From an uncultured Thermoleophilia bacterium (lineage in GTDB: Bacteria; Actinomycetota; Thermoleophilia; UBA2241): 64,000 nucleotides of DNA. Both the position numbers and the translations under genes were made by a program. How positions within the stretch are numbered: the stretch's first letter is position 1; each line of letters starts with the position of its first letter. Of this stretch, positions 2,542 through 58,895 are shown in pieces. The stretch is taken from positions 160,001-224,000 of the forward strand of contig CAVPCT010000002.1 of NCBI GenBank assembly GCA_963702475.1, read 5' to 3'. The notes under the pieces were generated by a model. It was not told the origin of the DNA. It made no database searches and saw only the letters and a list, made by a program, of their open reading frames with translations.

Positions 2542-2718
2542 CGCTTCTGGGGGCCTGCGCGACATGGCTCAGGCTCCCGCAGAGGCTCACGACGTACGCC
2601 GCAGAATCCGCTCCCCTGTGTCTTTACAGGGGCCTCTCTCGGGTCTAGCGTCGCGGTCGGGCCGGCGGTGGCCGGCGGCGCGCGATGAACGCGCAGGGGC
2701 GACGCGTGAGGGGGCACA

Positions 2719-3162
2719 GTGGAGCATCGATCGGGGGCCGGAGGCGGGGGGAGCCGGCGGGGTTCGCGGCTACGCCTGTACGTCCCCGATGAGCCCGGAG
2801 CCCCGCCGGTGCTCATGCTGTCCGGCGAGTTCGACGTGGCCAACGTGCGCGAGATCGACCGCTTCCTGCGCCGCCGCCTGGGACCCTTCTATCACCGTGG
2901 CGACCTAGTCATCGACCTCAGCGGGACGAGCTTCATCGACTCGAGCTTCGTGGGCTTTCTCGTGCGGCTCGTGAAGGAGCTGCGCGGTGCCGGCAGAGAG
3001 CTCCTGCTGGTGCGCCCCGGGGGGCAGGTGCGCCGCGTCTTCGCGATCGTGGGGTTGCCCAACCTGGTACCGGTGTTCGACTCGCTCGAGGATGCGCTCG
3101 GGTCGCTGCGCAGGGGTCCGCTGCCACTCATCCCGCCCCGCTTCGAGTTGCGCCGGGCGTAG
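2719..3162 (+). CDS. STAS-domain anti-sigma factor antagonist
   Basis: LSGEFD...VIDLSGTSFIDSS...VRRVFAIVGL pattern of SpoIIAA/RsbV-type STAS proteins. Confidence 0.85.
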   Translation: MEHRSGAGGGGSRRGSRLRLYVPDEPGAPPVLMLSGEFDVANVREIDRFLRRRLGPFYHRGDLVIDLSGTSFIDSSFVGFLVRLVKELRGAGRELLLVRPGGQVRRVFAIVGLPNLVPVFDSLEDALGSLRRGPLPLIPPRFELRRA

Positions 3163-3625: not shown

Positions 3626-3985
3626 TCAGGGTGCTGCCGCTTTGATGGCCTCGGCGCGCGACGGGTAGATGCCGAAGATGCGGTCGAGGCCGGTGATCTC
3701 GAAGATGCGGATGATGTTCTCGTCGGTGCAGACGATGTCGAGGTTGCCGTTGCGGGGCCGCACCCGTTTGGCGCCGCTCACGAGAACGCCCAGCGCGGTG
3801 GAGTCGATGAAGGTGACCTGGGAGAGGTCGACGATGACCCGGCGGGCGCCGCCCTCGATGCCGTTCACGAGGACTTCCTTGAACTGCGGCGCGGAGTAGA
3901 TGTCGATCTCCCCTCCGAGGACCACGACACCGACGTCGTCACTCGGCGTCTCGTAGACGACGCTGAACTGCGGCCGTTCCTCCAT
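3626..3985 (-). CDS. Anti-sigma factor antagonist (RsbV/BldG-like STAS protein)
   Basis: GEIDIYSAPQFKE, VDLSQVTFIDSTALGVLV and RIFEITGLD motifs. ATG at 3985 with GGAGG upstream is preferred over the longer ORF start. Confidence 0.92.
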   Translation of the reverse strand: MEERPQFSVVYETPSDDVGVVVLGGEIDIYSAPQFKEVLVNGIEGGARRVIVDLSQVTFIDSTALGVLVSGAKRVRPRNGNLDIVCTDENIIRIFEITGLDRIFGIYPSRAEAIKAAAP

Positions 3986-4140
3986 GCACGCCTCCTCTCG
4001 TTCCTCTTGTGGCTGGGCGGACGGGCACCGAAGGCGTGCGCCCGAGTGCTCGTCCACTTAGTTTCCGGAGGGGGTGGCAGCTAAACCCACCGGGGCAGGA
4101 CGGCGCCGGCCGCGCGGGCGGCGGGCGACCGGCCGCGGCG

Positions 4141-6094: not shown

Positions 6095-8572
<2,478 letters not shown>

Positions 8573-8585
8573 GGCGCGGGCCGGC

Positions 8586-9011
8586 TCAGCTCAACGCGCC
8601 CTCGATCTTGGTGAGGGCTTCCTTCTCGTGCGGGCCCACGCCCTTGGATGCGGCGGCCGTGGCCTGCGCGACGCCCATGATGAACGCCTTGAAGGCGTCG
8701 ACGTCGTCGGGTGACTTCGCTGCGACGATCTTCAGCGCCTCGTGGATGCGCTTCACGGCCTCATCGCCGAGGTGCGCGTGGTCGTGGGTCATCCGCTTGT
8801 CGTGGCTCAGCTTCACACTGCCCGCAAGGTCGTGGACGAGCGGGCTGGTGGTGTCTGCCTTGGCATGGGCCATGAACTTCGCCGCCGCCGTGGCCTCCTT
8901 GAACGTCGCCCAGAAGCTGGCTTCCGCCAGCGACACGTACGTCATCGTGTCGGTGACCGCCCACTCCAGGGTGGTCCACTCGTCGTCGGTGAACAGGGTC
9001 TTGCTCGTCAT
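8586..9011 (-). CDS. Hypothetical all-helical protein
   Basis: AAGGAGG SD, coding-like codon usage, 141 aa. C-terminus only loosely TerB-like. Confidence 0.6.
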   Translation of the reverse strand: MTSKTLFTDDEWTTLEWAVTDTMTYVSLAEASFWATFKEATAAAKFMAHAKADTTSPLVHDLAGSVKLSHDKRMTHDHAHLGDEAVKRIHEALKIVAAKSPDDVDAFKAFIMGVAQATAAASKGVGPHEKEALTKIEGALS

Positions 9012-9245
9012 GCCGCCTCCTTGGTGCCGCCGGTCGGTCTCGTCGGCGTGACGATACTCCAGCGGCGCGGCGCTCGCACCGCGCGGCGGTCGCGGTTTCC
9101 GTCACGACTGGGTCTCCGGCAACGTCAACCGGTGCTATCCCCCCTGAGGGGCGATGCCGTGGCGGCCTGCCGGGGCTAGCCTGTGTGTGCCACGCGTCTT
9201 CGCCACGTGGCCTCACCCGCACCAGCAGCTACCCGGGAGGTCCTC

Positions 9246-9959
9246 ATGCAACTCTCACGCCGCCAGATCATCGCGTACGTGGCGGTGGCCGCGGTCGTGG
9301 CCGCCGTGGGCGTTCGGTACCTGGTGGTGCCCAGGACCGCGGGCCGGGGCGGAGGCGAGCCTCTGATGCTGTCGAGTGTGGTCCCCGGTCAGGGGTCCTC
9401 CGCGGCCGGGCAGGCCGGCGCCGCGGGGGTGCAGATCGCCGCGGGCGCTGCGTCCGCCGGCCCGGCCGCGGCCGCATCGCCGGCGGCCGACGCCGTCGTC
9501 TACGTGTGCGGCGCCGTCAGGTCGCCCGGTGTCGTGCGCCTGCCGCAGGGCGCCCGCGTTGCGGAAGCGCTCGAGCTGGCCGGTGGCGCGACGGCCGGCG
9601 CCGAGCTCGCCGCCGTCAATCTCGCGGCCAAGGTCGTCGACGGGCAGCAGATCCTGGTGCCGGAGAAGGCCGCCGCTCAGGGGCAGGCCGGCGGCGGAGC
9701 TGGTGCACTCGCCGCCGCAGCCTCCGGCGGCACGGCCGCGGGCTCCCTCGGCCCGGCGATCCCCGGAGCGCTCGTCAACATCAACACCGCGTCGCTGGCC
9801 GAGCTCGATGTGCTCCAGGGCGTCGGGCCGTCCACCGCGCAGAAGATCATCGACTACCGCACCGCGAACGGGCCGTTCGCGCGCATCGAAGACCTCATGG
9901 ACGTGAGTGGCATAGGAGAGGCCAGGTTCGCGGCGCTGCAAGCCTCCATCACGGTGTGA
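9246..9959 (+). CDS. comEA: Competence DNA-binding protein ComEA
   Basis: N-terminal TM helix, SLBB domain (VYVCGAVRSPGV...NLAAKVVDGQQI) and HhH (VNINTAS...GVGPSTAQKII...GIG). GGGAGG SD before ATG 9246. Confidence 0.93.
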   Translation: MQLSRRQIIAYVAVAAVVAAVGVRYLVVPRTAGRGGGEPLMLSSVVPGQGSSAAGQAGAAGVQIAAGAASAGPAAAASPAADAVVYVCGAVRSPGVVRLPQGARVAEALELAGGATAGAELAAVNLAAKVVDGQQILVPEKAAAQGQAGGGAGALAAAASGGTAAGSLGPAIPGALVNINTASLAELDVLQGVGPSTAQKIIDYRTANGPFARIEDLMDVSGIGEARFAALQASITV

Positions 9960-9965
9960 TCCGCG

Positions 9966-12350
9966 GTGCTCCGTCGCGTCGCGCCGCCTCACCTCCTTCT
10001 GGCCGGGTATTGCGCCGGTCTGTGTCTGGCACTCGTTGGGGCAGCGCCGCTGTGGGCGCTGCTCCTCCTGTTCGTGGCGCCGGCGGCCGGCCTGGCGTTC
10101 TGCGCGTGGGGCTGTTCGAGGGAGGGGTCCGGACCCGCATGGCTCGCGGGCGTCCCTCTCCTGCTGGTCGTGCTCTTCCTCGCAGCCGGGCTCGCGGTGG
10201 GCGCCGCCCGCCTGGCATCGCTGGGCGGCAGCGAGCTGGCCGGCTTCGTCGGGCGCACGGTCGGGCTCACGGCGGTGGTCACCGACCTGCCGGCCGTGAA
10301 AGAGGACACCGCGACCTTTGCTCTCGCCGTCGAGTCCTTGGACGGGCGAGAGGTCGGCGAGCCGGCCCACCTGCGCCTGCGTCTCGCGGAGGGGCAGACG
10401 ATGCCCGCCGGGTCCACCGGACCACTGGTCGAGGGCATGCGGGTGACCGTGGACCACGTGCACGTGGAGGGCCTGCCCGCGCCGCGGCCCGGCGCGTTCG
10501 ACTACGGCCGCTACCTGCGGCGCAGAGGCGAGCACGTCATCCTCGAGGCGGATGCGGCGGACCTCCGCCTGGCCGGGCGGCGCGGCGGGCTGCAGGGCGC
10601 CGTCGACAGCCTGCGCGAGGCGTCCCGGTCCCATCTGCGGCAGGGCCTGCACGGAGTGGTGGCCGAGGTCCTGCAGGGCATGGTGCTCGGGGACGACGAG
10701 GGGGTCGACCAGGCGGCGATCGACGACTTCCGGCGAAGCGGGCTGCTGCACATCATGGCCGTGTCCGGTGAGAACGTCGTGCTGCTGTGCAGCATGTGGG
10801 CCTTCGTCTTCTCGCTCCTGGGCATCCCGCGGCTGGTGCGGACGGCGCTGTTGGTGCCCGTCGTGCTCGTCTACGTGGTGCTCACGGGGGCGTCACCCTC
10901 GATCGTGCGCGCCGGCATCTCCGGAGTGGTGGGGCTGCTGGCAGTCATGGCCTCGCGGCCGGCCGACGGCTGGCTGCTCTGGCTCCTGCCGGCGGCCTGG
11001 CTGCTCACGCTCAACCCCAGCAACCTGTACGACGTCAGCTTCCAGCTGTCGTTCGGTGCGGTGGCCGGGCTCCTCGTCCTGGCGCGTCCGCTCACGCGGC
11101 TCTTCCGCTGGCTGCCTGGGCCGCTGCCCGAGCAGGCCGGGGTCACGACCGCGGCGAGCCTCTCCACCGCACCGGTCTCCATGCTCACCTTCGGGTCGGC
11201 TTCGATCGTGAGCGTGCCCGCCAACCTCCTGGGGGGCTTCGTCCTCGGTCCGATCATGTTCCTCGGGATGCTCTCCCTGCTGGTCGGGTCCGTGGCGAGC
11301 TGGGCCTCAGCGCCGCTCAACGTGGTCGCGGGGCTGTTCATCGGCTTCCTGCTCGAGGTGGCACACAGGTTCGCCGCTCTACCGTGGGCGGTGTTCGAGT
11401 GGCAGGGTCTGTCGCTGCGGCTGCTGCTGGTGGTCGCCGCAATCGCCGAGCTCGCCGTACTGTGGGTGCTGGCCGGACGGGCCGGCGTGGGCCTGCGCGC
11501 GTTCGTTGGCGCTCCAGGGCGGCGCTGGCATGTGGTGACGGCCACGGCCGGGCTGCTGGCGGCCGTGCTGCTGCTGGCGCCCGCCCCGGCAGCGGCGCCT
11601 CAGCGGCCGACGCTCACGTTCCTGGACGTCGGTGAGGGCGCGGCCACACTGCTGCAGGTGCCGGCCGGCCCAACGGTGCTCGTGGACGCGGGCCCGGCTC
11701 CGCTGGCTCGCACGCTGCGCGAGCACGCGGTCGAAGCCGTCGATCTCCTGATCCTCTCGCACGGGCACGACGACCACGTGGCAGGGTTGGAGGACGTCGT
11801 AGGCAGCGTCCCCGTGAAGGTCGCCGTGTTGCCCGCTCCGGAAGTACGCTCGTCAGCGCTCGACGACATCGAGGCCAGACTCCGGGCGGAGGGCGCCGAC
11901 GTACGCCGGTGCGATGGGGAGCTGCGGATACCCGGTGAGGGGTGGAGTCTCGCGCTTCTCCCGAGCGATCCGGTGGGTGCGGTGGACCAGAACCAGAGGG
12001 AGAACGACGACGCCCTGGTCGTGATCGTGGAGCTCGACGGTCAGCGGGTGCTTCTCCCGGGTGACGCGGAGGGGCCGGCGCTGGCGGCCCTCGACCTGCC
12101 GGCGTGCACGGTGGTCGGCGTCCCGCATCACGGGAGCGCGGGCGGCTTCGACGCCGCGCTCCTGAGTGAGCTCTCACCGCGCTTGGCGGTCGTTCCGGTA
12201 GGGCCCAACCGGCACGGGCACCCGAGCGCGGAGACCCTCAGCCTGCTCGCGGCCGCCGGCGTGCCGTGCGCGCGGACCGACGAGCGAGGGGATGTGGTGC
12301 TCACGGCCGATGGCGGGCAGCTCGCCGTGGTCACGGAGCGCCGCGGCTGA
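9966..12350 (+). CDS. comEC: DNA internalization competence protein ComEC/Rec2
   Basis: PGAFDY, FRRSGLLHIMAVSGEN, SFQLSF, and a metallo-beta-lactamase domain (FLDVGEG, HGHDDH, HHGS, NRHGHP). Confidence 0.93.
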   Translation: MLRRVAPPHLLLAGYCAGLCLALVGAAPLWALLLLFVAPAAGLAFCAWGCSREGSGPAWLAGVPLLLVVLFLAAGLAVGAARLASLGGSELAGFVGRTVGLTAVVTDLPAVKEDTATFALAVESLDGREVGEPAHLRLRLAEGQTMPAGSTGPLVEGMRVTVDHVHVEGLPAPRPGAFDYGRYLRRRGEHVILEADAADLRLAGRRGGLQGAVDSLREASRSHLRQGLHGVVAEVLQGMVLGDDEGVDQAAIDDFRRSGLLHIMAVSGENVVLLCSMWAFVFSLLGIPRLVRTALLVPVVLVYVVLTGASPSIVRAGISGVVGLLAVMASRPADGWLLWLLPAAWLLTLNPSNLYDVSFQLSFGAVAGLLVLARPLTRLFRWLPGPLPEQAGVTTAASLSTAPVSMLTFGSASIVSVPANLLGGFVLGPIMFLGMLSLLVGSVASWASAPLNVVAGLFIGFLLEVAHRFAALPWAVFEWQGLSLRLLLVVAAIAELAVLWVLAGRAGVGLRAFVGAPGRRWHVVTATAGLLAAVLLLAPAPAAAPQRPTLTFLDVGEGAATLLQVPAGPTVLVDAGPAPLARTLREHAVEAVDLLILSHGHDDHVAGLEDVVGSVPVKVAVLPAPEVRSSALDDIEARLRAEGADVRRCDGELRIPGEGWSLALLPSDPVGAVDQNQRENDDALVVIVELDGQRVLLPGDAEGPALAALDLPACTVVGVPHHGSAGGFDAALLSELSPRLAVVPVGPNRHGHPSAETLSLLAAAGVPCARTDERGDVVLTADGGQLAVVTERRG

Positions 12351-18386: not shown

Positions 18387-18648
18387 GTGATCCCTTTTCT
18401 CAGGCTAGCGTCGTGACGGTTCCAGGTGCAGTGGGGCTGCGTCCGGACGCGCGATGCTATCACGCGCGCCGGAGATGGGGCAAACGCGCGTGGGGGAGGC
18501 GGCCGCGCGCGCCGCTGTGACACGGTGGTCAGGAACGTCCAGAGAACCACCCCATCGGGGTGAGGCACGCGTTCGCTTGCCGGGAGTACGGTGGCTGCAG
18601 GACGGGACACCGTCTCCCACGGGGAGCCGAACAGACGGGGTGGGGACC

Positions 18649-19302
18649 ATGGGACATCTGCGTAGGGTCGAAGCGTGTGCCGCAGCGGGAGCCGCCCTGA
18701 TCATCGTCGCCGTGGCGCTCACGCTGGCCGGGTGCGGTAGCCTGTCGGTCCCGGTGTTTCCCCCGCCGCCGACGTCGCTGCCCCCGTGGCCGTCCGGGGC
18801 AAGCCCCAGCCCGGCCGTGGCGTATCCGGTGCAGACCGCGACCATCGGAGGCACGCGCGCCGGGTGTGAGGGCTGGAGGTTCAAACCTACGGTGGACATC
18901 GAGGTCTCGGCCCTCGGCTTCTACGACGACGGACGGGACGGGCTCAGGAGCCCGCACCGTACGGCGATCCTCGACGCCGCTTCCGAGAAGACCGTCGTCG
19001 AGACCGTCGTCCAGGGCGGCAGCCCGCTCGAGGGGGCCTTCCGCTGGGAGTCAGTTGGACCCGTCGTCCTGGAGGCCGGGCACGAGTACGCGATGGTGTG
19101 GGACTGTCCCGCACCCGGCGACCCCCAGGTCCTGAACCCCGAAGACGCCTCCCTCGCGCTCGAGCTGCGCTACCTCGGCTACGGGGAGACCGCGAAGAGC
19201 GGACCGGCCTGGGGCCGCCCGGAGACCGGTGTGGAGAACGCCGTCCTCGCCGGCAACTTCAAGTACAGACCGGTGGCGGCCTCGAGCCCGTCGACCCAGT
19301 AG
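18649..19302 (+). CDS. Putative lipoprotein with Pro-rich linker and beta-rich (DUF4082-like) domain
   Basis: Signal peptide with LAGC lipobox, Pro/Ser linker, and GWRF...VSALGFYD...FRW...VVLEAGHEY. Confidence 0.6.
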   Translation: MGHLRRVEACAAAGAALIIVAVALTLAGCGSLSVPVFPPPPTSLPPWPSGASPSPAVAYPVQTATIGGTRAGCEGWRFKPTVDIEVSALGFYDDGRDGLRSPHRTAILDAASEKTVVETVVQGGSPLEGAFRWESVGPVVLEAGHEYAMVWDCPAPGDPQVLNPEDASLALELRYLGYGETAKSGPAWGRPETGVENAVLAGNFKYRPVAASSPSTQ

Positions 19303-19420
19303 TCACGGACTCGGGGCCGCTCCTTTCGCGGCGTCGATGCGGCCGATGTGGCAGCGGGGCCGACTACCGCGTGCTTGATGAGACAGCATCGGCGCGACGG
19401 GCGCGGACCGAGTCGGCCGT

Positions 19421-22400
19421 CTACCAGATCCAGGAGACCGGCTTCTCCGGGCCCAGCGTCACCTTGACGGTCATCGGGCGCCAGTAGTGACGGTGAAGTG
19501 CTTGCTGGGAGAGCCCTTCCGGTGCAGTCATAAGGGCACCGGACCTGAACCTGAGCGCGCTCACCGCGACCACGCTCCCCGGGGTCGCGTGCCGCAGGAA
19601 GCCGACCACGTCCTCCTCGGTGTACGTAGGCGTTCCGTCGAGCGCCAGCATGATGTCGCCGCCGACTCCGTACCACGAGCCGTCGTCTTGCACCCACTTG
19701 CCGTTGTACTTCAGGAGCTGCCGAGCCCCGCGAAGCCCGGCCTTGGCCGCAGGGCTGCCGGGCATGACGCCCCCGATCAGGATCCCCTGCTGCTCGCCAA
19801 GCCCGAACGACCTGGCCAGCTTCGTCCTGGTCGCCTCGGGCGTCAGGACACCCCAGTAATCGATGCCGAGCGTGACGGGCTGCGCATACTCCTGCATACC
19901 GCGCGCCACGCCGTCGACCGTGAAGCGGTAGTAGTTGACGCCCGTGGCGGCGCCGGGGCCTGCGAGCGCGCCCAGGTTCCTGTATCCGGTTGCCTCGGTC
20001 GCGTTCTTGTACCCGGGCCCCATCACGGCGATGAGGTGGCCGGTCGTGTCGACCAGTGCCCCACCCATCGGCGACTTCGTGGGGTTACTGGTGACCATCT
20101 GGAGGACCCGATGTTTGGAGCCAGCGACTGCCTGGGAGCCGCTGTACGTGGACAAGACGGTGCCGCCGGACCGCAGGAGCTCCCCACCCAATCGGCTCAG
20201 GCAGATGACCCGATCCCCCTTGCGGACCGAGTCGGAGTCCCCCTCGGGCATCGGCTGAAGGCGGAGCGAACCGGGGTCGACCTTGATCAAGGTGGTGGTG
20301 TCGTTCCCCGCCACGCATTTGATCTTGTAGCCGCGTAGCGTGTGATAGCTGCCATTGCCGTAGATCCCGACGGTGACGACCTCCGGGTCGATCAGGACCG
20401 GCCAGCGGCCCAGCGGGTCGTCGCTGGTGTAGATGAGTCCGTCCTTCGAGACGATCACGCCCGACTCGTGAACGCGCTTCCAGACGATGCGATGCTGCTT
20501 GTCGGCGACCCGCACCTTGGCGCTGATGTCGACGATGCTGTCCCCGTGCTTGTCGGCGATCTGCTGGGCGGTGAGCTGCACGGGCCCGGACGGCTCGTCC
20601 TGCGTCGTGGGCCTGAAGGCCACGACCGCGATCGCCGCGACGAAGGCGACGGCGATGACGGCAGTCGCGGCGACGAGGAGCGGCGCACGCCGCCGCAGGG
20701 TGCGTCGCGCGCGCCGCGAGAGGAAGAAGCGCCGCTTGGGCTTGGCGACCTCGGCGGCGACCCTCTCGGCGCGGGCGAAGTGGGCGGCCGCGGCGGTGGC
20801 GTCGAGCGGAGCCGCGCGTCCCCCGGCCAGCTCCAGGTAGCGGCTGGTGGGTCCGGCAAGCTCGTCCTCAAGCTCGAACAGCCCGCAGGCGGTGGCCATC
20901 TCCAGGGCCGTCGCGTAGTGGTAGGCGAGGATCTCGGCCATGTCCTCGGTGCGCCCGGCGGTGCGCTCCTCGAGCCACCTCGCGAGGGCGGCGTGCTTCG
21001 CGGCTCGGTCTGCGCGAGTGAGCTGCGCGTAGGCGACATCGCAGACGAGGGCGTGGATGAAGACGAACTCGGCCTCGCCCTCGATGGAGGAACTGCGCGC
21101 AGGCCGCACGAGTTCCTTGGCCACCAGCTCGTGCAGGCCCTCGAAGACCGCCGCCGGTCCCTCACCGCCCACAGCCGCCACCGCACCGGCCCAGAAGGTG
21201 CGTCCTACCACGGCGGCGTCGGCGAGCAGCGCCTTGCGCACGGGGCCGAGGAGGTCAAGGCGCGCGGCGATGAGGGCGCCTATGGAGCCCGGCGTGGGCA
21301 GCTCGGCCCCTTCCTTGAGCATCGTCTGGCCGCCGTGGGTGACGAGCAGATCGCCATCCTCCAGGAGGCGCACCAGCTCCTCGGCGAAGAGGGGGTTGCC
21401 GCCGGAGCGTTCGAGCAGGGTGGCCTGGAGCTTGACGGGCAGCGACTTGGCGCCCAGGCGGGCGAGGACGAGCTGCGCCGTCTCATCGCCGGAGAGGGGA
21501 CCGACGGCGATGTGCTCGGCGGCGGCGCAGAAGCCAGCACCCGCGCCGCTGCGCTCGAGGAGCTCGGGACGGGAGGTGGCGAGGATCAGCAGGGGAACCT
21601 CGGCGCTGCTCTGCGCGAGGTAGTCCATGAAGGCGAGCATGCCCTCGTCGGCCCAGTGCAGGTCCTCGACCACGACCACCGCGGGTCCCGCGGCGGCGAG
21701 ACCCGCGAGGAAGTCTCGCCAGGCGGCGAAGTTGTCCTCGCGGCCCGCATCCTCCGCCTCCAGACCGAGCAGAGGGCGGAGGCGGCCGCGCAGGCGGTCG
21801 CGGTCGGTCCTGTCGGCGAGGACGGCCTCGAGCCGCGCCTCCGTGCGCGCCACGCCGTCGCTGTCCAGGACGCCGGCCGAGTCTCTGACGATCTCCGACA
21901 GGGCCCAGAAGGTGACGTTGGAGCCGAACGGTAGGCAGCGGCCCTGGCGCCAGGTGACGACCTCGGGCCGCTCGTCGAGGCGGCGGGCGAACTCGGCCAG
22001 CAGGCGGCTCTTCCCGATGCCCGGTTCGCCGACGATCAGGGCGAACCGGGGATGACCGGTCTCGGCAGCTTCATCCAGGAGCTTGCGAAGCCCGGCGAGC
22101 TCCTCCTCGCGGCCGACGAATGTCGAGGCGAAACTGCGCAGCTCCGAGCCGGTACGCGCCAGGGGCGCGGTGGCGATCCAGGCTGCCAAGGGCGCGGTCT
22201 TGCCCTTGACGATGACGGGGTGGCAGGCCTCGAACGTGAAGATGCGCTCGGTGGCAGCGTGGGTGGCCTCCCCGACGGCTACAGCCATGGGCGGCGCGGC
22301 GGCCTGCAGGCGCGCGGCCACGTTGACGGCATCGCCGGTGAGAAGACCCTCGCCGCTTGAAGGATCGACATCGAGGGCGACCAGGACTTCGCCCGTGTTC

Positions 22401-22801
22401 ACCCCCACGCGCACCTCGACCGGCTGTCCGCCGATGCCCGGCAGGGCGTCGATCTCGTCGACCAGCCTCAGGGCGGCGCGCACGCCGCGCTCGGGGTCGT
22501 CCTCGTGCAGGGTGGGCACGCCAAAGACGGCCACCACGGCGTCGCCGATGAACTTCTCCACCGTTCCGCCATAGGCGTGCACCGCCCGCCGGGCCACCTC
22601 GTAGTAGCGGCGCAGAAGGGCGTTGACATCCTCGGGATCGTTCCGTTCCGAGAGGGCAGTGAAGCCGACGAGGTCGCAGAACAGGGTGGTGACCGTGCGG
22701 CGCTCCTCGAGGTGCGGTCGTGAACCCAGCAGCGCGCCGCAGTGCGGACAGGAGAGGACGGCCTCCGGGACGTCGCGACCACAAGAGGGGCAGGTGCTCA
22801 C
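19421..22801 (-). CDS. Zinc ribbon - class III adenylate cyclase - STAND/AAA NTPase - TM - degenerate trypsin-like - PDZ fusion protein
   Basis: CPSC/CPHC; FCDLVGFT, EKFIGDAV, GDAVNVAARLQ; GEPGIGKS, EDLHWAD, GGNPLF; hydrophobic helix; SGVIVSKDGLIYT and GGALVD; PGSPAAKAGL...GDI. GTG 22801 start inferred. Confidence 0.85.
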   Translation of the reverse strand: MSTCPSCGRDVPEAVLSCPHCGALLGSRPHLEERRTVTTLFCDLVGFTALSERNDPEDVNALLRRYYEVARRAVHAYGGTVEKFIGDAVVAVFGVPTLHEDDPERGVRAALRLVDEIDALPGIGGQPVEVRVGVNTGEVLVALDVDPSSGEGLLTGDAVNVAARLQAAAPPMAVAVGEATHAATERIFTFEACHPVIVKGKTAPLAAWIATAPLARTGSELRSFASTFVGREEELAGLRKLLDEAAETGHPRFALIVGEPGIGKSRLLAEFARRLDERPEVVTWRQGRCLPFGSNVTFWALSEIVRDSAGVLDSDGVARTEARLEAVLADRTDRDRLRGRLRPLLGLEAEDAGREDNFAAWRDFLAGLAAAGPAVVVVEDLHWADEGMLAFMDYLAQSSAEVPLLILATSRPELLERSGAGAGFCAAAEHIAVGPLSGDETAQLVLARLGAKSLPVKLQATLLERSGGNPLFAEELVRLLEDGDLLVTHGGQTMLKEGAELPTPGSIGALIAARLDLLGPVRKALLADAAVVGRTFWAGAVAAVGGEGPAAVFEGLHELVAKELVRPARSSSIEGEAEFVFIHALVCDVAYAQLTRADRAAKHAALARWLEERTAGRTEDMAEILAYHYATALEMATACGLFELEDELAGPTSRYLELAGGRAAPLDATAAAAHFARAERVAAEVAKPKRRFFLSRRARRTLRRRAPLLVAATAVIAVAFVAAIAVVAFRPTTQDEPSGPVQLTAQQIADKHGDSIVDISAKVRVADKQHRIVWKRVHESGVIVSKDGLIYTSDDPLGRWPVLIDPEVVTVGIYGNGSYHTLRGYKIKCVAGNDTTTLIKVDPGSLRLQPMPEGDSDSVRKGDRVICLSRLGGELLRSGGTVLSTYSGSQAVAGSKHRVLQMVTSNPTKSPMGGALVDTTGHLIAVMGPGYKNATEATGYRNLGALAGPGAATGVNYYRFTVDGVARGMQEYAQPVTLGIDYWGVLTPEATRTKLARSFGLGEQQGILIGGVMPGSPAAKAGLRGARQLLKYNGKWVQDDGSWYGVGGDIMLALDGTPTYTEEDVVGFLRHATPGSVVAVSALRFRSGALMTAPEGLSQQALHRHYWRPMTVKVTLGPEKPVSWIW

Positions 22802-23117
22802 CGTTCTCGCCCCCCGTGAGGTGCCACGCTGGCTCTCCGCAAGCGCATGCGATCGGCCCCCAGGGAACTGCTTCGGATGAGTGTACCCATCGGTCAACGG
22901 TCCGGAGGGTACCGGCCTCTCAGGGCGCGCGCGAGCCCCCGCACGCCTGCCGGTGCCGTCTGAGACGGTCGGACCGTCCGGGAGGACGCACCACTGTGGA
23001 GGGAACCATCCAGCGGCCGGAATCCCCCAGCCGGACGACCTCATCCACCTCCGCCGGGAGGTTCCGGCGTGGGCTCTGTCCGGTAGGCTCGCCCACGAGC
23101 AGAGCAGGAGGAGTGCC

Positions 23118-24065
23118 ATGAGAGCGGTGGTGTGTCCAAGATACGGAGGGCCGGAGGTCCTCGAGCTGCGAGATGTGCCCAAGCCCAGTCCCAGGGACGA
23201 CGAGGTCTGCATCAGGATCACGGCGACCGCGGTGACCGCCAGTGACCTCTTCATCCGTGGATCCCGGATACCCCTGCGGTTCCGCATCCCGATGCGCCTC
23301 ATGATCGGCGTGATGCGACCGCGCCGATCGATCATCGGCCTGGTACTGGCGGGGGAGATCGAGTCGGTCGGCCGGGACATCAGGCGCTTCAAGCCCGGCG
23401 ACCACGTCTATGGCCTCACGGGGTTCAACCTCGGCGCCTACGCCGAGTACACATGTATGAAGGAGACCGACTCGACGCACGGGTGCCTGGCGTTGAAGCC
23501 GGCGAACGTGACGTACGAGGAGGCGACTGCGGCGGCCTACGGCGGGTTGCTGGCCCTGCAGGCACTGGAGACGGGTGATATCCGGCGCGGGCAGCGGGTG
23601 CTCGTGTACGGGGCCTCCAGCACGTCGGGGACGATCGCGGTGCAGTACGCGAAACATCTCGGGGCGCACGTCACGGCGGTCTGCGGCACCGCCAACGTCG
23701 AGCTGGCGCAGTCCTTGGGCGCGGACGCCGTTATCGACTACACGAAGGTTGACGCTCTCGCATCCGGCGAACAGTACGACGTCGTGCTCGACGCGGTCGG
23801 CAAGGCGAAGACGTCGAAGCTGAAGGAGTCGTGCCGAGCACACGTGTCCGGCGCAGGCAGGTACGTGTCGATCGACGATGGCAGCCTGCTGCTCGACTCG
23901 GGCCGGCTGACGCGGGTGAAGGAGTTGGTCGAGGCCGGAGCGATCAGACCGGTCGTGGACCGGTGTTACCCGCTGGACGACATCGCCGAGGCGCACAGGT
24001 ACGTGGAGCACGGACACAAACGCGGGGGAGTGGCGATTACGGTCGGGCACGAGGTCGTGGCCTGA
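23118..24065 (+). CDS. NAD(P)-dependent MDR-family oxidoreductase (RTN4IP1/quinone reductase-like)
   Basis: MRAVV..YGGPEVL, GAYAEY, VLVYGAS, LGADAVIDY, AHRYVE.GH. AGGAGG SD. Confidence 0.9.
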   Translation: MRAVVCPRYGGPEVLELRDVPKPSPRDDEVCIRITATAVTASDLFIRGSRIPLRFRIPMRLMIGVMRPRRSIIGLVLAGEIESVGRDIRRFKPGDHVYGLTGFNLGAYAEYTCMKETDSTHGCLALKPANVTYEEATAAAYGGLLALQALETGDIRRGQRVLVYGASSTSGTIAVQYAKHLGAHVTAVCGTANVELAQSLGADAVIDYTKVDALASGEQYDVVLDAVGKAKTSKLKESCRAHVSGAGRYVSIDDGSLLLDSGRLTRVKELVEAGAIRPVVDRCYPLDDIAEAHRYVEHGHKRGGVAITVGHEVVA

Positions 24066-42445: not shown

Positions 42446-43522
42446 TCACCCCCGCGGCCTGACGCGTGTGCGCTCCATCTCGCAGGCCTCCTCGGCCGCC
42501 TCCTCGATCTCGCCCTCCTGGATCGGCGCCCGCCCGGGGCGCACCAGGAAGTAGGCGATGAAGCCGGGCGGGATGGGCAGCCAGAAGTTGATCAGACGGT
42601 AGGTGAGGACCACGGCCACGGCGGTCGCCGACGGCACGCCAAAGCTCACGTACAGGGCGATCATGATGCCTTCGACCGCGCCCAGGCCACCCGGCGTGGG
42701 CGCCAGTGTGCCGATGGCGTAGGCGACCACGTAGCCGACGGCGAGGTAGCCGAACCCCATCCTGTAACCGAAGGCGAAGAACGTGGCCCACAGACACAGC
42801 AGGTCCAGCGCCCAGAACACGCAGGCCAGGCCGGTCGTCGTCCTGAGCGCGCCGCGGTGTGACGTCATGCGGCGCATGCCGGCGAAGAGATTGTCCAGCC
42901 AGCCGTCGATGTGGTCCTCCTGGATGGTCTCCCGGCGGGTGACGCGGTTGATGAGGTGCGCCACCTGCTGGGCCCGGCGCCGCATGCGCGAGCGGTGGTG
43001 GTACAGGTACACGCCGTAGCTGGTGAGCCAGAGGATCAGGCCGATGAGGATGATGCCCACCACGTACCCCGCGATCGACTCGCCGCGCACGATCACCAGC
43101 CACAGCAGGGCGAGGGCGAACACGAACCACAGGACCACGTAGTTGAAGAATTGCTGCGCGGCGATGGCCACGAAGATGAGGCCGTGCGGCGCCCGGCGCT
43201 TACGCAGGGCGTTGTACGTCACCACCCAGCCACCCACGCCGCCGGCCGACAGGATGTGGCTCACCGCCAGGCTGCTGAGCGTGATGGCGGCGACCTCCCG
43301 CAGGCGCAGCTCGATGTCGAGCACCTTGAGGATGAAGCGCGTCAGGTTCGCGTAGCCGAGCAGTGCGCCCACCTGGAGGGCGATGGCGAGTGCCAGCAGC
43401 GCCCAGCTCGCGTTGGTGAGCATCGCGATCGTGCTCTCGGTGTCCACCAGCCTCGGGAGCAGCAGGTAGAGCGCGAGGACGATGACGGCGAAGACGAGGA
43501 TGTGGCGGAGCGTCTTCTTGAT
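42446..43522 (-). CDS. Lysylphosphatidylglycerol synthase TM-region (UPF0104, flippase-like) protein; apparent ATC start
   Basis: PTPGGLGAVE...YRLINFWLP family motif. The frame extends past the track start (43447) through a TM helix to ATC 43522, which has GGGGGAGG 6 nt upstream. Confidence 0.82.
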   Translation of the reverse strand: MKKTLRHILVFAVIVLALYLLLPRLVDTESTIAMLTNASWALLALAIALQVGALLGYANLTRFILKVLDIELRLREVAAITLSSLAVSHILSAGGVGGWVVTYNALRKRRAPHGLIFVAIAAQQFFNYVVLWFVFALALLWLVIVRGESIAGYVVGIILIGLILWLTSYGVYLYHHRSRMRRRAQQVAHLINRVTRRETIQEDHIDGWLDNLFAGMRRMTSHRGALRTTTGLACVFWALDLLCLWATFFAFGYRMGFGYLAVGYVVAYAIGTLAPTPGGLGAVEGIMIALYVSFGVPSATAVAVVLTYRLINFWLPIPPGFIAYFLVRPGRAPIQEGEIEEAAEEACEMERTRVRPRG

Positions 43523-43700
43523 CGGCGGCCTCCCCCAGCCGCGGGCCTGCGGACGATGGCTGACAGTACCACACCGGCTGCGGCGCCCCTGCGGTGGCGG
43601 TCCGCATCAGGAAGCGCCGGTGCGCCGCTGACGCCGCGCCTCCGCCGCTCAGTAGCCGGTGCCGCTTCGCCGCACCGCCAGCTGAGTCCTCTTCCGCCGC

Positions 43701-44762
43701 TCAGTGCCAGGCGCGCCGCAGGTGCGCGTACGAGAGCATGCCGAACGGGATGGGGAGCCAGAAGTTGATGAGGCGGTACACCAGCACGACGGCCACCGCG
43801 GCTGCCGACTGCATGCCGAAGCTCACGAGCATGGCCATCATCACGCCCTCCACGGCTCCGAGGCCGCCGGGGGTGGGGGAGACGGTGCCCACCACGAAGG
43901 CGATGCCGTAGGCGATGAGGACGTAGTAGATGGGCACCCACTGGTGGAAGGCGAGCATCACCATGAGCAGGCACAGGATGTCGAAGCCCCAGTAGCCGAC
44001 CGAGAGGCCGATGGTGCGCCAGTGGCGGCGGCCGTCGAGGCGGAGCCGCCGCCACCCGTCCACCACGCCGTCGAGCCAACCTTCGAGCCGCTCGTCGGGG
44101 ATGCTGAGGCGCTCCCAGCGACGCCCCAGCCAGCCGACGACCCGATGTGCGGTGCGCCGCAGGCTGCTGGGGTGGGCGAGCAGCCAGAAGCCGTAGAAGC
44201 TGAGCCCCGAGAGCAGGACGACGAACACGGCCGCGAACGCCATGGCCACGTCGTCGGCCTCGCCGCGCAGGATCAGTGTGAGCAGGCCCACGCCGAACAG
44301 TGCGTACAGCACGTAGTAGGCGAACGCGTTCTGGAAGATGACGGCGATGAGTACCAGGGAGTGGGGCATGCCGCGTTTTTGCAGGACGCGGTACTGGACG
44401 GCCGCGCCGCCGACGCCGCCGGCGGAGAAGAGGTGGGCGGCGGCCAGCCCGGCGACGTTGATGCGCAGGGAGAGTGAGAGCTTGACGGGGAACTGCAGCA
44501 GGCGAAGCAGGCGCCGGAAGAGCAGGGAGTAGAACAGCAGCGCGCCGACCTCGAGGACGACGGCGATCACCAGGAGCGCCGGGTTCGCGTTGCGCACGAG
44601 GTCGACCGCGTGCGCCTGGCCGGCCAGGCGCGGCAGGAGCAGGAACAGGGCGGCGACGATGACCAGGAAGACGATCGCAGCCCGCAGCCTGTGACGGCCG
44701 CGCCGTTCCGCCGGTGCCTGACCGTCGTCGTGAAGCGGCTCAGCGGCGGGGTCCACGTCCAC
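43701..44762 (-). CDS. Lysylphosphatidylglycerol synthase TM-region (UPF0104, flippase-like) protein, paralog of the neighbour
   Basis: SAGGVGG, PTPGGLGAVEG and YRLINFWLPIP shared with 42446..43522. Start approximate. Confidence 0.85.
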   Translation of the reverse strand: MDVDPAAEPLHDDGQAPAERRGRHRLRAAIVFLVIVAALFLLLPRLAGQAHAVDLVRNANPALLVIAVVLEVGALLFYSLLFRRLLRLLQFPVKLSLSLRINVAGLAAAHLFSAGGVGGAAVQYRVLQKRGMPHSLVLIAVIFQNAFAYYVLYALFGVGLLTLILRGEADDVAMAFAAVFVVLLSGLSFYGFWLLAHPSSLRRTAHRVVGWLGRRWERLSIPDERLEGWLDGVVDGWRRLRLDGRRHWRTIGLSVGYWGFDILCLLMVMLAFHQWVPIYYVLIAYGIAFVVGTVSPTPGGLGAVEGVMMAMLVSFGMQSAAAVAVVLVYRLINFWLPIPFGMLSYAHLRRAWH

Positions 44763-45129
44763 TCCCGGACCGCGCGTCGCCGAGCACATCGTCCTCGATC
44801 TCGCGGCGGCGGATCCACGCGTAGGCCACGCTCGCAGGCACGCACGTGAAGGGGATCGCACAGAGGACGACCCAGCCCCAGCGGCGCGCGCGTATCGTCG
44901 TCCAGACGCCGAGGACCCAGGATGCGGCCCAGCCCGCGAGCAGCGCGACGCCCCATGCCACAGCCAGGGGGCGCGAAAGGAACGTGACGGCGAGCACCTC
45001 GGCAGCCATGCGCAGCAGGAACAGGGCAAGCGTCAGCGATGAGACGAGGAAGAGGTTGGCGAGGCGCCGCAGTTCGGCGGTGATCTCGGAGCCGGCCTGG
45101 ATGCCGGGTGCGTGCGTGTGGTGCTTCAT
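44740..45129 (-). CDS. Small hypothetical membrane protein
   Basis: Three hydrophobic segments; overlaps the start of the downstream gene on the same strand. Confidence 0.55.
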   Translation of the reverse strand: MKHHTHAPGIQAGSEITAELRRLANLFLVSSLTLALFLLRMAAEVLAVTFLSRPLAVAWGVALLAGWAASWVLGVWTTIRARRWGWVVLCAIPFTCVPASVAYAWIRRREIEDDVLGDARSGSGRGPRR

Positions 45130-57018: not shown

Positions 57019-58836
57019 TCAGGGCAGCAGTTTCTGCGCCGCGGCGACCGTACGCAGCGCCTCCTGCAGGGTGACGCGCGCCAAGGGCCGCAGCTTCTCG
57101 GTGTCGATGACGTTGTGCGGCGCGATGCCGCGACGGATGAGCTCCGCGTGGTGTTGCAGCCGCAACCTCGACATGCTCGCGTAGGCTTCGCTCAAGGCCC
57201 GTGCCGCGTCGGTATCGCCGGTCATGTGCTGCACCGACGCCAGGCGCTCCACAGTGCTGCCCGCTGAGATGCCCCTGGCGAACGCGTAGAAGCGCGCCAG
57301 GTTCTCCACGGGCAGCAGCCCGCTCTTCTTGATGTCGATGGGCCCCGTGAGGCGGCCACGGAACCCGAGCGGAGAGGGGATCTGCGAGGCCAGGTGCCCG
57401 AGGCCGCTGAGAAAGCCGCCGCGGCGCGGGGCCTGCCGCAGTATCCCGCTGAGCGGCGTGACGATGTCCAGTTCGCCGGCGACCCTGCGGAAGTCGAAGG
57501 CGATGCTGGCGCGCAGCAGGTGGTTCCAGTCCCACACCTCCAGGCAGCGCAAGAACACGCTCATCCAGTTCGTGCGGGTGAGGCGCCAGTGCGGGTCGCG
57601 GGCCAGCACGCCGGACTCGTCGTAGCTGAAGCCGCAGCGTGCGAGGCCCTCGTTGACGTCGCCGGCCATGGCTGCGAAGTAGGCGTCCGCCGCGGGGTCG
57701 TCGGTGTCCTCGTAGGCGAGGCCGTTGTCCTGGTCCGAAGCCAGTGTGAGCTCGTTACGGGCGCAGCTGCCGAGCGCCAGCCAGGCGAAGGCTGCGGGAG
57801 GCGGGCCGTGGCGGACGACGGCCAGGTCGATGAGGCGTGCGGTCATCGCGTCCATGAGCAAGGTGACGACGCGGGTGATCGCCGGTCCGTCGAGGCCTGC
57901 ATCCACGAGGCTCACGAAGAGGCCGGGAAGCTGCGTCGCGGCCTGCACCACGGCGTCTTCGTCGTGGGCCGTGGCGATCGTCCAGCGCAGGGCAAAGGGG
58001 CTCAGCGCGTCCAGGTTCATCAGGCTGCCGGCCGACACCACGCCGAGCACGCGCCCGTCGGGGCCCAGGACGGCGAGGTGGTTGACGTTCGCCGCCATCA
58101 TCTCGATGCTGGCCTGCGGCGCCAGGGTCTCGGCGCTCACGGTGCGCGCCGGGACCGTCGCGATCGAACTGACCGGCATGTCGCGCGGCAGGTCGCCGGC
58201 GACGACCTTGGAGCGCAGGTCGGCGTCGGTGACGATCCCCAGTCCCTGTGGCATCTCCACGAGCACGGCCGTGACGATCTCATCGTTCATCAGCTGTGCC
58301 ACCTTGCGCACCGTCATGTCCGGCGGGCAGAACACCGGCTCCCGCCTGATCAGCCTGGTGACCGGCACGGTGCGCACGTCGGGCAAGGCGTGCGCCGTCG
58401 CCGACGTGCGCAGCACGCGGTCGCGGAAGGTCTGCGCTATGAAGGCGGCTCCCTCCGGCCGGCCGAGGACCGCGACAGCCTCGTCGCGCGGCAGCACGTA
58501 GAGCGCGGAGTCCTCGCGGGCGCGCACGGTGAACTCGGGCGGCTGGCCGGAAAGGAGCGTGGGGTGGCCGAAGAGCTGGCCCTTGGTCACGAGGTCGACG
58601 ACCCTGTTCTTGTGGTCCAGTTCCATGGTGCCGTCGCGGACCACGTACAGATGCTCGCCCGGAGGGCCGTTCTCCACCAGCACCGCCTCGCCTCGCCCGA
58701 CGCGGGTCTCCCGTACCGCCGCCGCCACGCGTTCGAGGTCAGGGCGCGAGAGCGTGTCGAACGGGGGATAGCGGCCCAGGAACCGGGCGATCTCGCGGAC
58801 GTGGTCGTCCACCGCGCTTGTGCTGCTCGTCGTCAT
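57019..58836 (-). CDS. cNMP-like + CBS + DUF294 putative nucleotidyltransferase
   Basis: PPF..L, LYVVRDG (cNMP fold); GIVTDADLR (CBS); LGS.AR.E....SDQDNGL; DIKK.GL.P. Confidence 0.9.
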   Translation of the reverse strand: MTTSSTSAVDDHVREIARFLGRYPPFDTLSRPDLERVAAAVRETRVGRGEAVLVENGPPGEHLYVVRDGTMELDHKNRVVDLVTKGQLFGHPTLLSGQPPEFTVRAREDSALYVLPRDEAVAVLGRPEGAAFIAQTFRDRVLRTSATAHALPDVRTVPVTRLIRREPVFCPPDMTVRKVAQLMNDEIVTAVLVEMPQGLGIVTDADLRSKVVAGDLPRDMPVSSIATVPARTVSAETLAPQASIEMMAANVNHLAVLGPDGRVLGVVSAGSLMNLDALSPFALRWTIATAHDEDAVVQAATQLPGLFVSLVDAGLDGPAITRVVTLLMDAMTARLIDLAVVRHGPPPAAFAWLALGSCARNELTLASDQDNGLAYEDTDDPAADAYFAAMAGDVNEGLARCGFSYDESGVLARDPHWRLTRTNWMSVFLRCLEVWDWNHLLRASIAFDFRRVAGELDIVTPLSGILRQAPRRGGFLSGLGHLASQIPSPLGFRGRLTGPIDIKKSGLLPVENLARFYAFARGISAGSTVERLASVQHMTGDTDAARALSEAYASMSRLRLQHHAELIRRGIAPHNVIDTEKLRPLARVTLQEALRTVAAAQKLLP

Positions 58837-58895
58837 GAGTCATCGCCTCAGCGGAGCGAAGGATACCAGCCCTGCGCCGGCGTGCATACGTCCGT

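Follow-up and report, generated by a model that had tools for sequence, protein, structure and literature searches.

STAND NTPases such as MalT, Avs and the relatives of NLR proteins are regarded as receptors of the cytoplasm that bind their signal through C-terminal repeats. One kind found in Actinomycetota joins a zinc ribbon, a class III nucleotidyl cyclase and an AAA_16-type STAND NTPase to about 440 amino acids (aa) of tetratricopeptide repeats (TPR) at the C-terminus. These cyclase-STAND-TPR proteins are soluble, and we take the M. tuberculosis Rv0386 group to be a related kind. Some bacterial class III cyclases carry periplasmic sensor domains and form single-pass receptor cyclases. For the HtrA proteins DegS and AlgW, an HtrA review gives peptide binding by the PDZ domain as the sensing event. 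Here we consider a gene, P0001, on a 64,000-nucleotide (nt) stretch of DNA (hereafter the window) from an uncultured Thermoleophilia bacterium (assembly GCA_963702475.1, contig CAVPCT010000002.1, positions 160,001 to 224,000 of the forward strand). Its predicted product carries the head of a cyclase-STAND protein on one side of the membrane and an HtrA-like protease-PDZ module, with the catalytic triad lost, on the other. This transmembrane (TM) STAND cyclase with a pseudoprotease ectodomain is best filed as a variant within the known cyclase-STAND family. A full-text literature search that took in two STAND surveys and excluded subscription-only papers and supplements found no published description of a cyclase-STAND protein fused to an extracytoplasmic HtrA-like module.

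The features of P0001, in order along the protein, are as follows.

19421..22801, minus strand: the whole gene, 1126 aa plus stop, an uninterrupted frame with a GTG start.
22736..22795, minus strand: zinc ribbon with two CxxC pairs (aa 3-22; Pfam UPF0547 and Zn_Ribbon_1).
22187..22705, minus strand: class III nucleotidyl cyclase (aa 33-205; Pfam Guanylate_cyc, E 6.6e-21).
21584..22123, minus strand: STAND NTPase P-loop domain (aa 227-406; Pfam AAA_16, E 1e-24).
20741..21583, minus strand: putative STAND helical arm (aa 407-687), unmatched in Pfam and, as far as aa 678, collinear with relatives of the TPR type.
20681..20740, minus strand: Arg-rich juxtamembrane segment, PKRRFFLSRRARRTLRRRAP, strongly conserved (aa 688-707).
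20615..20680, minus strand: single TM helix (aa 708-729), the sole hydrophobic peak and a helix in both AlphaFold2 (AF2) models.
19877..20569, minus strand: HtrA-like (S1C) protease fold without triad (aa 745-975), assigned from Pfam, a PDB sequence search, AF2/Foldseek and alignments.
19424..19876, minus strand: PDZ domain (aa 976-1126) with the carboxylate-binding loop TLGI and a C-terminal extension ending W-I-W.

Pfam and hydropathy agree with the original prediction of one open reading frame holding a zinc ribbon, a cyclase, Walker A and B motifs, an Arg-rich stretch with a TM helix, trypsin-like sequence and a PDZ domain, the motifs TSDD and SPMGG lie where that prediction had placed them, and EKFIGD is present as it had stated. 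The head matches Guanylate_cyc with 75.2 bits (cut-off 21.9) and AAA_16 with 88.3 bits (cut-off 32.6); the zinc-ribbon matches (E 1e-5 to 2e-4) are below cut-off, and the ribbon is common to P0001 and TPR-type sister proteins. Among PDB sequences the cyclase domain matches 2w01 best (E 5e-22) and the receptor cyclase 9bcv with E 1.5e-10. The metal-binding Asp43 and Asp87 are present, as are Lys83, Asn160 and Arg164, with EKFIGD at aa 82-87, and Lys83 aligns with the specificity Glu/Lys of the Cya2 structure, including its Lys-bearing engineered form. Among full-length homologues with a residue at the column, D43 is kept in 24/24, D87 in 25/25, K83 in 25/25, N160 in 26/26 and R164 in 25/26. The NTPase has the Walker A motif GEPGIGKS (aa 258-265) and the Walker B motif VVVVEDLHWAD (aa 375-385), and its residues K264, S265, E379 and D380 are each found in 26 of 26 full-length homologues. 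Judged by these alignments, the catalytic residues of both cyclase and NTPase are under strong conservation. The arm is less easily placed: aa 407-678 are helical in the full-length AF2 model, at low confidence, and no PDB sequence matches the NTPase plus arm (aa 223-687) at E <= 0.01. The NCBIfam kinase/cyclase-STAND model TIGR03903 (TOMM_kin_cyc) matches in part, over aa 32-638.

Over aa 3-678 the protein is 53% identical to the cyclase-AAA_16-TPR protein P0243, with five gaps and no rearrangement, and the shared head includes the cyclase residues, the Walker motifs and the arm. TPR matches in the TPR-type relative start at aa 671-695. The 37 lower-tier matches of a search with the head (51-56% identity) are mostly cyclase-AAA_16-TPR proteins, in keeping with the earlier remark that cyclase-STAND proteins usually end in TPR, and JGI annotates proteins of the P0243 type as 'class 3 adenylate cyclase/tetratricopeptide (TPR) repeat protein'. 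No Pfam repeat family, and so no C-terminal cytoplasmic sensor of the TPR, WD40 or LRR type, is matched in P0001, which has the TM helix and HtrA/PDZ module in that place. Since P0001 and P0243 are collinear to aa 678, the TM helix and pseudo-HtrA/PDZ module replace the TPR sensor at the end of the STAND arm, and at about aa 680 the alignment places a swap of that sensor for juxtamembrane segment, TM helix and pseudo-HtrA/PDZ. By descent, as read from these alignments, the closest kin of P0001 are the soluble cyclase-STAND-TPR proteins; in working principle, by analogy, the closest systems are DegS, AlgW and the single-pass receptor cyclases.

The predicted topology is a single pass with the N-terminus inside and the C-terminus outside. 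The TM helix (aa 708-729) reaches a peak Kyte-Doolittle mean of 2.87 over 19 aa, and is flanked by 12 Lys or Arg in the preceding 30 residues versus one in the following 30. By the positive-inside rule this asymmetry puts the first ~700 residues in the cytoplasm and the last ~400 outside the membrane, as the original prediction had supposed in wiring the protein across the membrane. In the juxtamembrane segment R691, L694, R696, R697, R699, R700, L702, R704 and P707 are invariant.

The part outside the membrane is predicted to have the HtrA fold. Trypsin_2 matches aa 780-926 with E 1e-5 and 26.7 bits, just below the cut-off of 27.6 that is exceeded in relatives, and PDZ_6 matches aa 1009-1037 with 30.7 bits (cut-off 27). 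The NCBIfam Do/DegS models match weakly over aa 730-1039, as does the MamE model (33 bits against a cut-off of 800). The PDB sequences matched by aa 698-1126, with E 2e-6 to 1e-3, are those of DegP, DegQ, AlgW, HhoA and others of their kind. The AlphaFold model of the same residues, built with 30 homologues, has a mean pLDDT of 79.9 and a pTM of 0.77. Every listed top match of this model in a Foldseek comparison with the PDB is an HtrA-family protease-PDZ structure (DegP 3cs0, E 2.6e-19), the further listed matches being Deg1, AlgW, DegQ, DegS, HhoA, HtrA2 and M. tuberculosis HtrA. The PDB fold search with the full-length AF2 model again gave HtrA matches only, and an ESM Atlas look-alike search with aa 733-1126 gave only ordinary S1C/PDZ clusters. 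On self-association of the ectodomain, a complex prediction with three copies of the protease part (aa 733-975; score 0.00, mark 0.42) speaks neither for nor against.

Within this fold the catalytic residues are missing. TSDD (aa 792-795, 20417-20428) and SPMGG (aa 910-914, 20060-20074) occupy the protease motifs, and alignments with E. coli K-12 DegP and 15 or 25 HtrAs carrying both protease motifs put Asp795, Thr836 and Met912 in the His, Asp and Ser columns, respectively. The original claim that His and Ser are lost is thereby sustained and extends to the Asp. His, Asp and Ser fill the three columns in 25 of 25 active HtrAs and in DegP. The family as a whole was examined in 71 tails, defined by the juxtamembrane motif followed by at least 330 aa and drawn from 274 collected proteins, in an alignment where DegP of E. 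coli and each of 15 active HtrAs carry all three residues. None of the 71 has Ser in the Ser column, which holds Thr in 21, Val in 15, Leu in 14, Ile in 5, Ala and Arg in 4 each, Met and Pro in 2 each, and Tyr, Asn, Cys and Asp once each. His stands in the His column of a single tail (P0030), and Asp in the Asp column of nine. Thus no intact triad, which would have spoken against the original reading, is found by alignment and fold assignment in any of them. The PDZ domain shows the opposite pattern of retention: the loop TLGI (aa 977-980) is matched across the family tails by Leu in 60/71, Gly in 59/71 and Val, Ile or Leu in 63/71, the PGSPAAKAG helix region is conserved, and both loop and helix region resemble those of active HtrAs. 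The invariant positions of the tails are mostly Gly and scaffold residues. The ectodomain therefore reads, at the level of sequence, as one that keeps the HtrA fold and the peptide-carboxylate loop of the PDZ domain and has lost the triad across the whole family. P0001 has the two-barrel fold and PDZ domain of an HtrA serine protease, but with its triad residues replaced it would not be classed as one.

MamO of magnetotactic bacteria, described as an HtrA-like pseudoprotease with a degenerate active site and a non-catalytic role, is the closest precedent for such a repurposed HtrA scaffold. It has the trypsin/HtrA fold and degenerate active site in common with the P0001 ectodomain, with no demonstrated sequence kinship beyond the fold, and it differs in its di-histidine binding of transition metals, in its activation of MamE and in lacking a cyclase or STAND fusion. 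A trypsin-like domain has been linked to cyclases before: Kaur et al. (2020) mention vWA-MoxR systems in which cNMP (cyclic nucleoside monophosphate) cyclase domains go with a trypsin-like domain at the N-terminus, an arrangement unlike that of P0001.

P0001 belongs to a sizeable family. When aa 700-1126 were searched against 5.8 billion proteins, 32 matches other than P0001 itself were obtained. In 25 of them cyclase, AAA_16 and Trypsin_2/PDZ occur together on a single chain of ~1060-1140 aa; the other seven are shorter, and six of these still have Trypsin_2 or PDZ. Among the 120 proteins listed when aa 1-700 (the head) served as query, 83 have heads 64-100% identical, and Trypsin_2/PDZ matches were found in 71 of these 83 and TPR Pfam matches in none. 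The shared architecture that the original prediction called for is therefore present in quantity. The remaining 12 are 667-986 aa long: in nine the sequence past the juxtamembrane motif is truncated or looks out of frame, and three stop before the motif. In all, at least 71 cluster representatives have the P0001 design, from uncultured Actinomycetota/Thermoleophilia, and 56 full-length members were found. The automatic database names of these proteins, from Actinomycetota/Thermoleophilia metagenome-assembled genomes (MAGs), include 'class 3 adenylate cyclase/S1-C subfamily serine protease' (JGI) and 'AAA family ATPase'. A phmmer search of 1.84 billion representatives gave 1342 matches at E <= 0.001 and only 8 at E <= 1e-30, those beyond the family being ordinary HtrAs of ~30% identity. 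Among 185,579 species genomes there are at least three loci, of which at least two, L002 and L003, are true relatives, one in a Thermoleophilia MAG and one in an Actinomycetes MAG. Each has two frame changes (L002 at 8338-11041, L003 at 7897-11212), and the P-loop region (aa 223-394) is absent from L002; these breaks are either sequencing errors in the MAGs or marks of pseudogenes. L002 also has an additional HtrA-like match at 3-920.

The two halves of the protein diverge at very different rates. Over 26 full-length members the mean pairwise identity is 0.79 for the cyclase, 0.75 for the NTPase, 0.79 for the helical arm and 0.74 for the juxtamembrane segment with the TM helix (aa 688-732), compared with 0.34 for the protease fold and 0.37 for the PDZ domain. 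On these alignments the head evolves far more slowly than the ectodomain. In a tail tree rooted on 10 active HtrAs and using 30 of the 56 family tails, the family tails form one clade (SH-aLRT, the SH-like approximate likelihood ratio test, 100). Two metagenomic relatives were placed in a quick tree, by one sequence each. P0050, a stand-alone lipoprotein-type HtrA relative of 402 aa that has kept His and Asp and has Thr at the Ser position, branches as the sister of the whole set of family tails and could represent an intermediate stage toward the dead module. P0044 (550 aa) has the ectodomain family, Arg-rich segment, TM helix and overall layout of P0001, but a 120-aa TIR domain (TIR_2) replaces the cyclase-STAND head. 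Its triad columns read A/G/L, and its tail is nested among the family tails, 51% identical to that of P0193 in a 16-row clade with support 97. It represents a single sequence cluster.

We propose, with moderate confidence, that P0001 is an outside-in single-pass receptor cyclase in which the pseudo-HtrA/PDZ module is the ligand sensor. The dead protease-PDZ module would bind peptide or protein C-termini, or another envelope-derived ligand, outside the membrane, and binding would cause a conformational or clustering change in the ectodomain. The TM helix and the conserved Arg-rich segment next to it would relay this change to the STAND switch, where ATP-dependent oligomerisation could pair the cyclase domains as active dimers, and an event outside would become a cyclic-nucleotide signal, probably cyclic AMP (cAMP), inside the cell. 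The rapid divergence and exchangeability of the ectodomains suggest that the ligand differs from one family member to another. TIR domains are activated by oligomerisation, and the TIR head of P0044 would thus fit a clustering mechanism. The HtrA review and a STAND survey supply elements for this scheme: all HtrAs oligomerise and DegS-like forms are TM-anchored trimers, PDZ peptide binding triggers allosteric change and substrate binding shifts the oligomeric state of DegP (HtrA review), and STAND sensors, located in the C-terminal region, relieve autoinhibition and trigger oligomerisation (STAND survey). Like P0001, DegS and AlgW have an N-in TM anchor, an extracytoplasmic protease fold and one PDZ domain with a carboxylate loop. 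DegS, however, relies on its triad and signals through cleavage of RseA, whereas the P0001 family is without one and its output would be the fused STAND-cyclase of ~700 aa. The natriuretic-peptide receptor guanylyl cyclases likewise combine an extracellular ligand-binding domain with a single TM helix and, inside the cell, a class III cyclase that must dimerise. In single-pass receptor cyclases a kinase-homology or HAMP-type transducer leads to a C-terminal cyclase, whereas in P0001 the cyclase is N-terminal and the STAND NTPase lies before the membrane.

Several points weigh against this proposal. The peptide or stress ligand, the outside-in direction and the cAMP product are all matters that we infer. 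To our knowledge there is no worked-out precedent for one TM helix signalling to a STAND module, and the stoichiometries are mismatched, HtrA modules being trimeric and class III cyclases dimeric. The full-length AF2 model (pLDDT 65, pTM 0.39) is too poor for domain contacts to be read from it. The loss of the triad follows from sequence alignment and fold assignment, not from a residue-level superposition. The ectodomain identity of 34-37% could reflect relaxed constraint instead of ligand diversification. The neighbourhood gives no help, being uninformative on function and without the look of a defence island, and the neighbours of L002 and L003 differ from those of P0001 (Fic and MarR-type genes, and an amidase). 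Finally, at the second nucleotide-specificity position, located by its distance from the VN motif, P0001 has Leu and 24 of 26 relatives have Phe, and the canonical residue for adenine there is Asp or Thr. The Lys that was originally called ATP-specifying is present throughout (25/25), but the second position weakens the claim for ATP, and cAMP is likely, not certain, as the product; from the sequence we take it to be cAMP probably.

The explanation that survives best beside the outside-in receptor starts from the same wiring, with a different ligand class and biological role: a surface immune or conflict receptor whose variable ectodomains would recognise phage parts or competitor toxins or peptides and whose STAND-cyclase or TIR head would raise the alarm. 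We regard this as unlikely. In its favour, ectodomains are 34-37% identical against 75-79% for heads, and head and tail trees are discordant. P0001 and P0003 have heads 75% and tails 72% identical, whereas for P0001 and P0187 the figures are 78% and 34%. When eight tail clades (FastTree, 56 tails) are mapped on the head tree they require 24 changes, compared with a minimum of 7 and a mean of 34.7 after shuffling, and several well-supported sister pairs of heads bear different tail clades. An approximately unbiased (AU) test with 29 of the 56 heads and two TPR outgroups rejects the nine clade-A members as one head clade (log-likelihood difference, delta lnL, 675; p 0.0001), with a formal standing weakened by the choice of clade A from the tail tree after the FastTree head tree was known. 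Either ectodomains have been exchanged among paralogues or heads have been homogenised within genomes. The same 'longest contig' value is given, for example, for P0003, P0275 and P0276 (66195) and for P0013 and P0043 (30233), a hint, from equality alone, that several family copies share a contig. The TIR-headed P0044, together with the swapped sensors and effectors that STAND surveys call typical of defence systems, would fit a role in conflict.

The cyclase domain also matches the PADLOC PycC models (best E 1e-16). These matches are, however, no better than generic class III homology (PycC 59 bits versus Pfam 75), no other PADLOC family matches P0001 convincingly, and P0001 lies outside Pycsar and the catalogued anti-phage systems, with no gene for a cyclic-nucleotide-activated effector adjoining it. 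Their high conservation sets the heads apart from many immune effectors, and the STAND-defence survey, in its available part, has TPR, WD40 and FGE sensors and no mention of cyclases. A still wider version is doubtful: that the family comprises cell-surface pattern receptors whose exchangeable, fast-evolving pseudoprotease/PDZ ectodomains, each with an extracellular protein or peptide of its own to recognise, switch on a STAND-cyclase or TIR head by ligand-driven clustering, a transmembrane counterpart of the NLR/TLR type in Actinomycetota and the first STAND NTPase to sense outside the cell.

The C-termini of the tails vary as well. They end W-I/T/N-W in 12 of the 71, with clade A ending W-I-W or W-x-W (in P0001 at 19424-19432), and clade B tails end in an aromatic W..PWL-type sequence; these ends have a likeness to hydrophobic aromatic PDZ ligands. 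Docking of the C-terminal W-I-W into the protein's own PDZ groove is no more than speculation and is unsupported by the monomer model, in which the last eight residues are coil and add no strand. A family-specific PDZ insert was set aside: the spacing from the AG-hydrophobic helix motif to the GD strand motif is 10-47 aa in the family, but 17-19 aa occur in 11 of 16 active HtrAs too.

Actinobacterial HtrAs are already TM-anchored with cytoplasmic N-termini, and the fusion could on this ground be a mere localisation device. The ectodomain would then be no input at all but an anchor, a scaffold or a non-proteolytic holdase, with the cue coming from the cytoplasm, or it would serve inside-out signalling in which the state of the NTPase controls what the ectodomain binds. 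We consider this improbable. A study of M. smegmatis HtrA reportedly found a chaperone role apart from proteolysis. With a mean identity of 0.79, the arm (aa 407-687) equals the enzymes in conservation and could itself bind a cytoplasmic ligand, and chaperone roles of HtrAs independent of proteolysis (HtrA review) and the non-catalytic action of MamO point the same way. Against this, the module stands exactly where the sister family has its TPR sensor, the STAND survey puts the sensor of STAND proteins in the C-terminal region, and an anchor needs neither a conserved PDZ carboxylate loop nor a folded module of 400 aa kept in 71 of 83 proteins.

That the module is still a protease, acting through non-canonical residues such as a Thr nucleophile in some members, is highly improbable. 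The Thr in the Ser column of 21 of 71 tails and the retention of His and Asp beside Thr in P0050 would be its best support, but P0001 itself has Asp, Thr and Met in the His, Asp and Ser columns, His is found in 1/71, the Ser column holds Val, Leu, Ile, Ala, Arg, Met, Pro or others in 50/71, and the invariant columns, mostly Gly and structural residues, contain no alternative conserved polar triad. An assembly chimera or decaying pseudogene that fuses two unrelated genes, for which the frame changes in L002 and L003, the missing aa 223-394 of L002 and several short metagenomic predictions out of frame past the juxtamembrane motif could be cited, deserves almost no credence, as P0001 is a single 1126-aa frame of uniform codon bias, 56 full-length members exist, and the junction (aa 688-732), which the original prediction had singled out for checking, averages 74% identity in 26 full-length homologues on separate contigs.

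The gene itself is well delimited. The longest open frame containing P0001 is 19421..23392 on the minus strand; a start at 23392 was rejected because the extension overlaps the divergent dehydrogenase gene and is not needed. Initiation at the GTG at 22801, immediately preceded by a G-rich stretch, gives an N-terminus that opens with the zinc-ribbon motif CPSCG, as in full-length homologues. GC (guanine plus cytosine) is 0.88 at third codon positions versus 0.53 at second positions, a bias found in neighbouring genes as well. A 530-aa frame antisense to P0001 (20342-21934, plus strand) fails the codon-position GC filter and is the usual high-GC shadow frame. A promoter and terminator scan of 19000-23400 gave no signal above shuffles.

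The surroundings are of a housekeeping kind: leuS, comEC, holA, rpsT, a lipoprotein-like gene, P0001 and a zinc-dehydrogenase-type (alcohol-dehydrogenase-type) gene, then a GH3 hydrolase, murJ, lepA, hrcA and dnaJ. There is no paralogue of P0001 in the window. The lipoprotein-like gene (18454-19302, plus strand) has a hydrophobic stretch with a lipobox-like LAGC, is convergent with P0001 across a 118-nt gap, and has no confident family (weak DUF4082 match, E 0.015). A protein with cNMP_binding, CBS and DUF294 nucleotidyltransferase domains, a possible cyclic-nucleotide receiver, is encoded at 57019-58839 (minus strand), ~35 kb from P0001, and a second CBS and DUF294 paralogue at 62591-64000 (minus strand) runs past the end of the window. 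Elsewhere in the window there are two STAS-domain (anti-sigma-antagonist-like) genes beside secDF (2710-3162, plus strand; 3626-4057, minus strand) and tandem paralogues with an LPG_synthase_TM domain (42446-43606 and 43701-45032, both minus strand).

Our analysis places an across-membrane module in the sensor position of a STAND protein, and the question it raises is how one TM helix can control a STAND switch. It also offers a clear bacterial case in which a protease scaffold has become a probable sensor, and does so for an entire family instead of one odd gene. The ectodomain has been swapped between heads of the cyclase-STAND and TIR kinds, which suggests that it is a sensing unit for the outside of the cell that can be carried from protein to protein. 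Should the ectodomains differ in their ligands, the family could yield modular receptors that convert extracellular peptides to cAMP, which would be useful in synthetic biology. For the poorly studied Thermoleophilia, the P0001 family would open a view of how the envelope is sensed.

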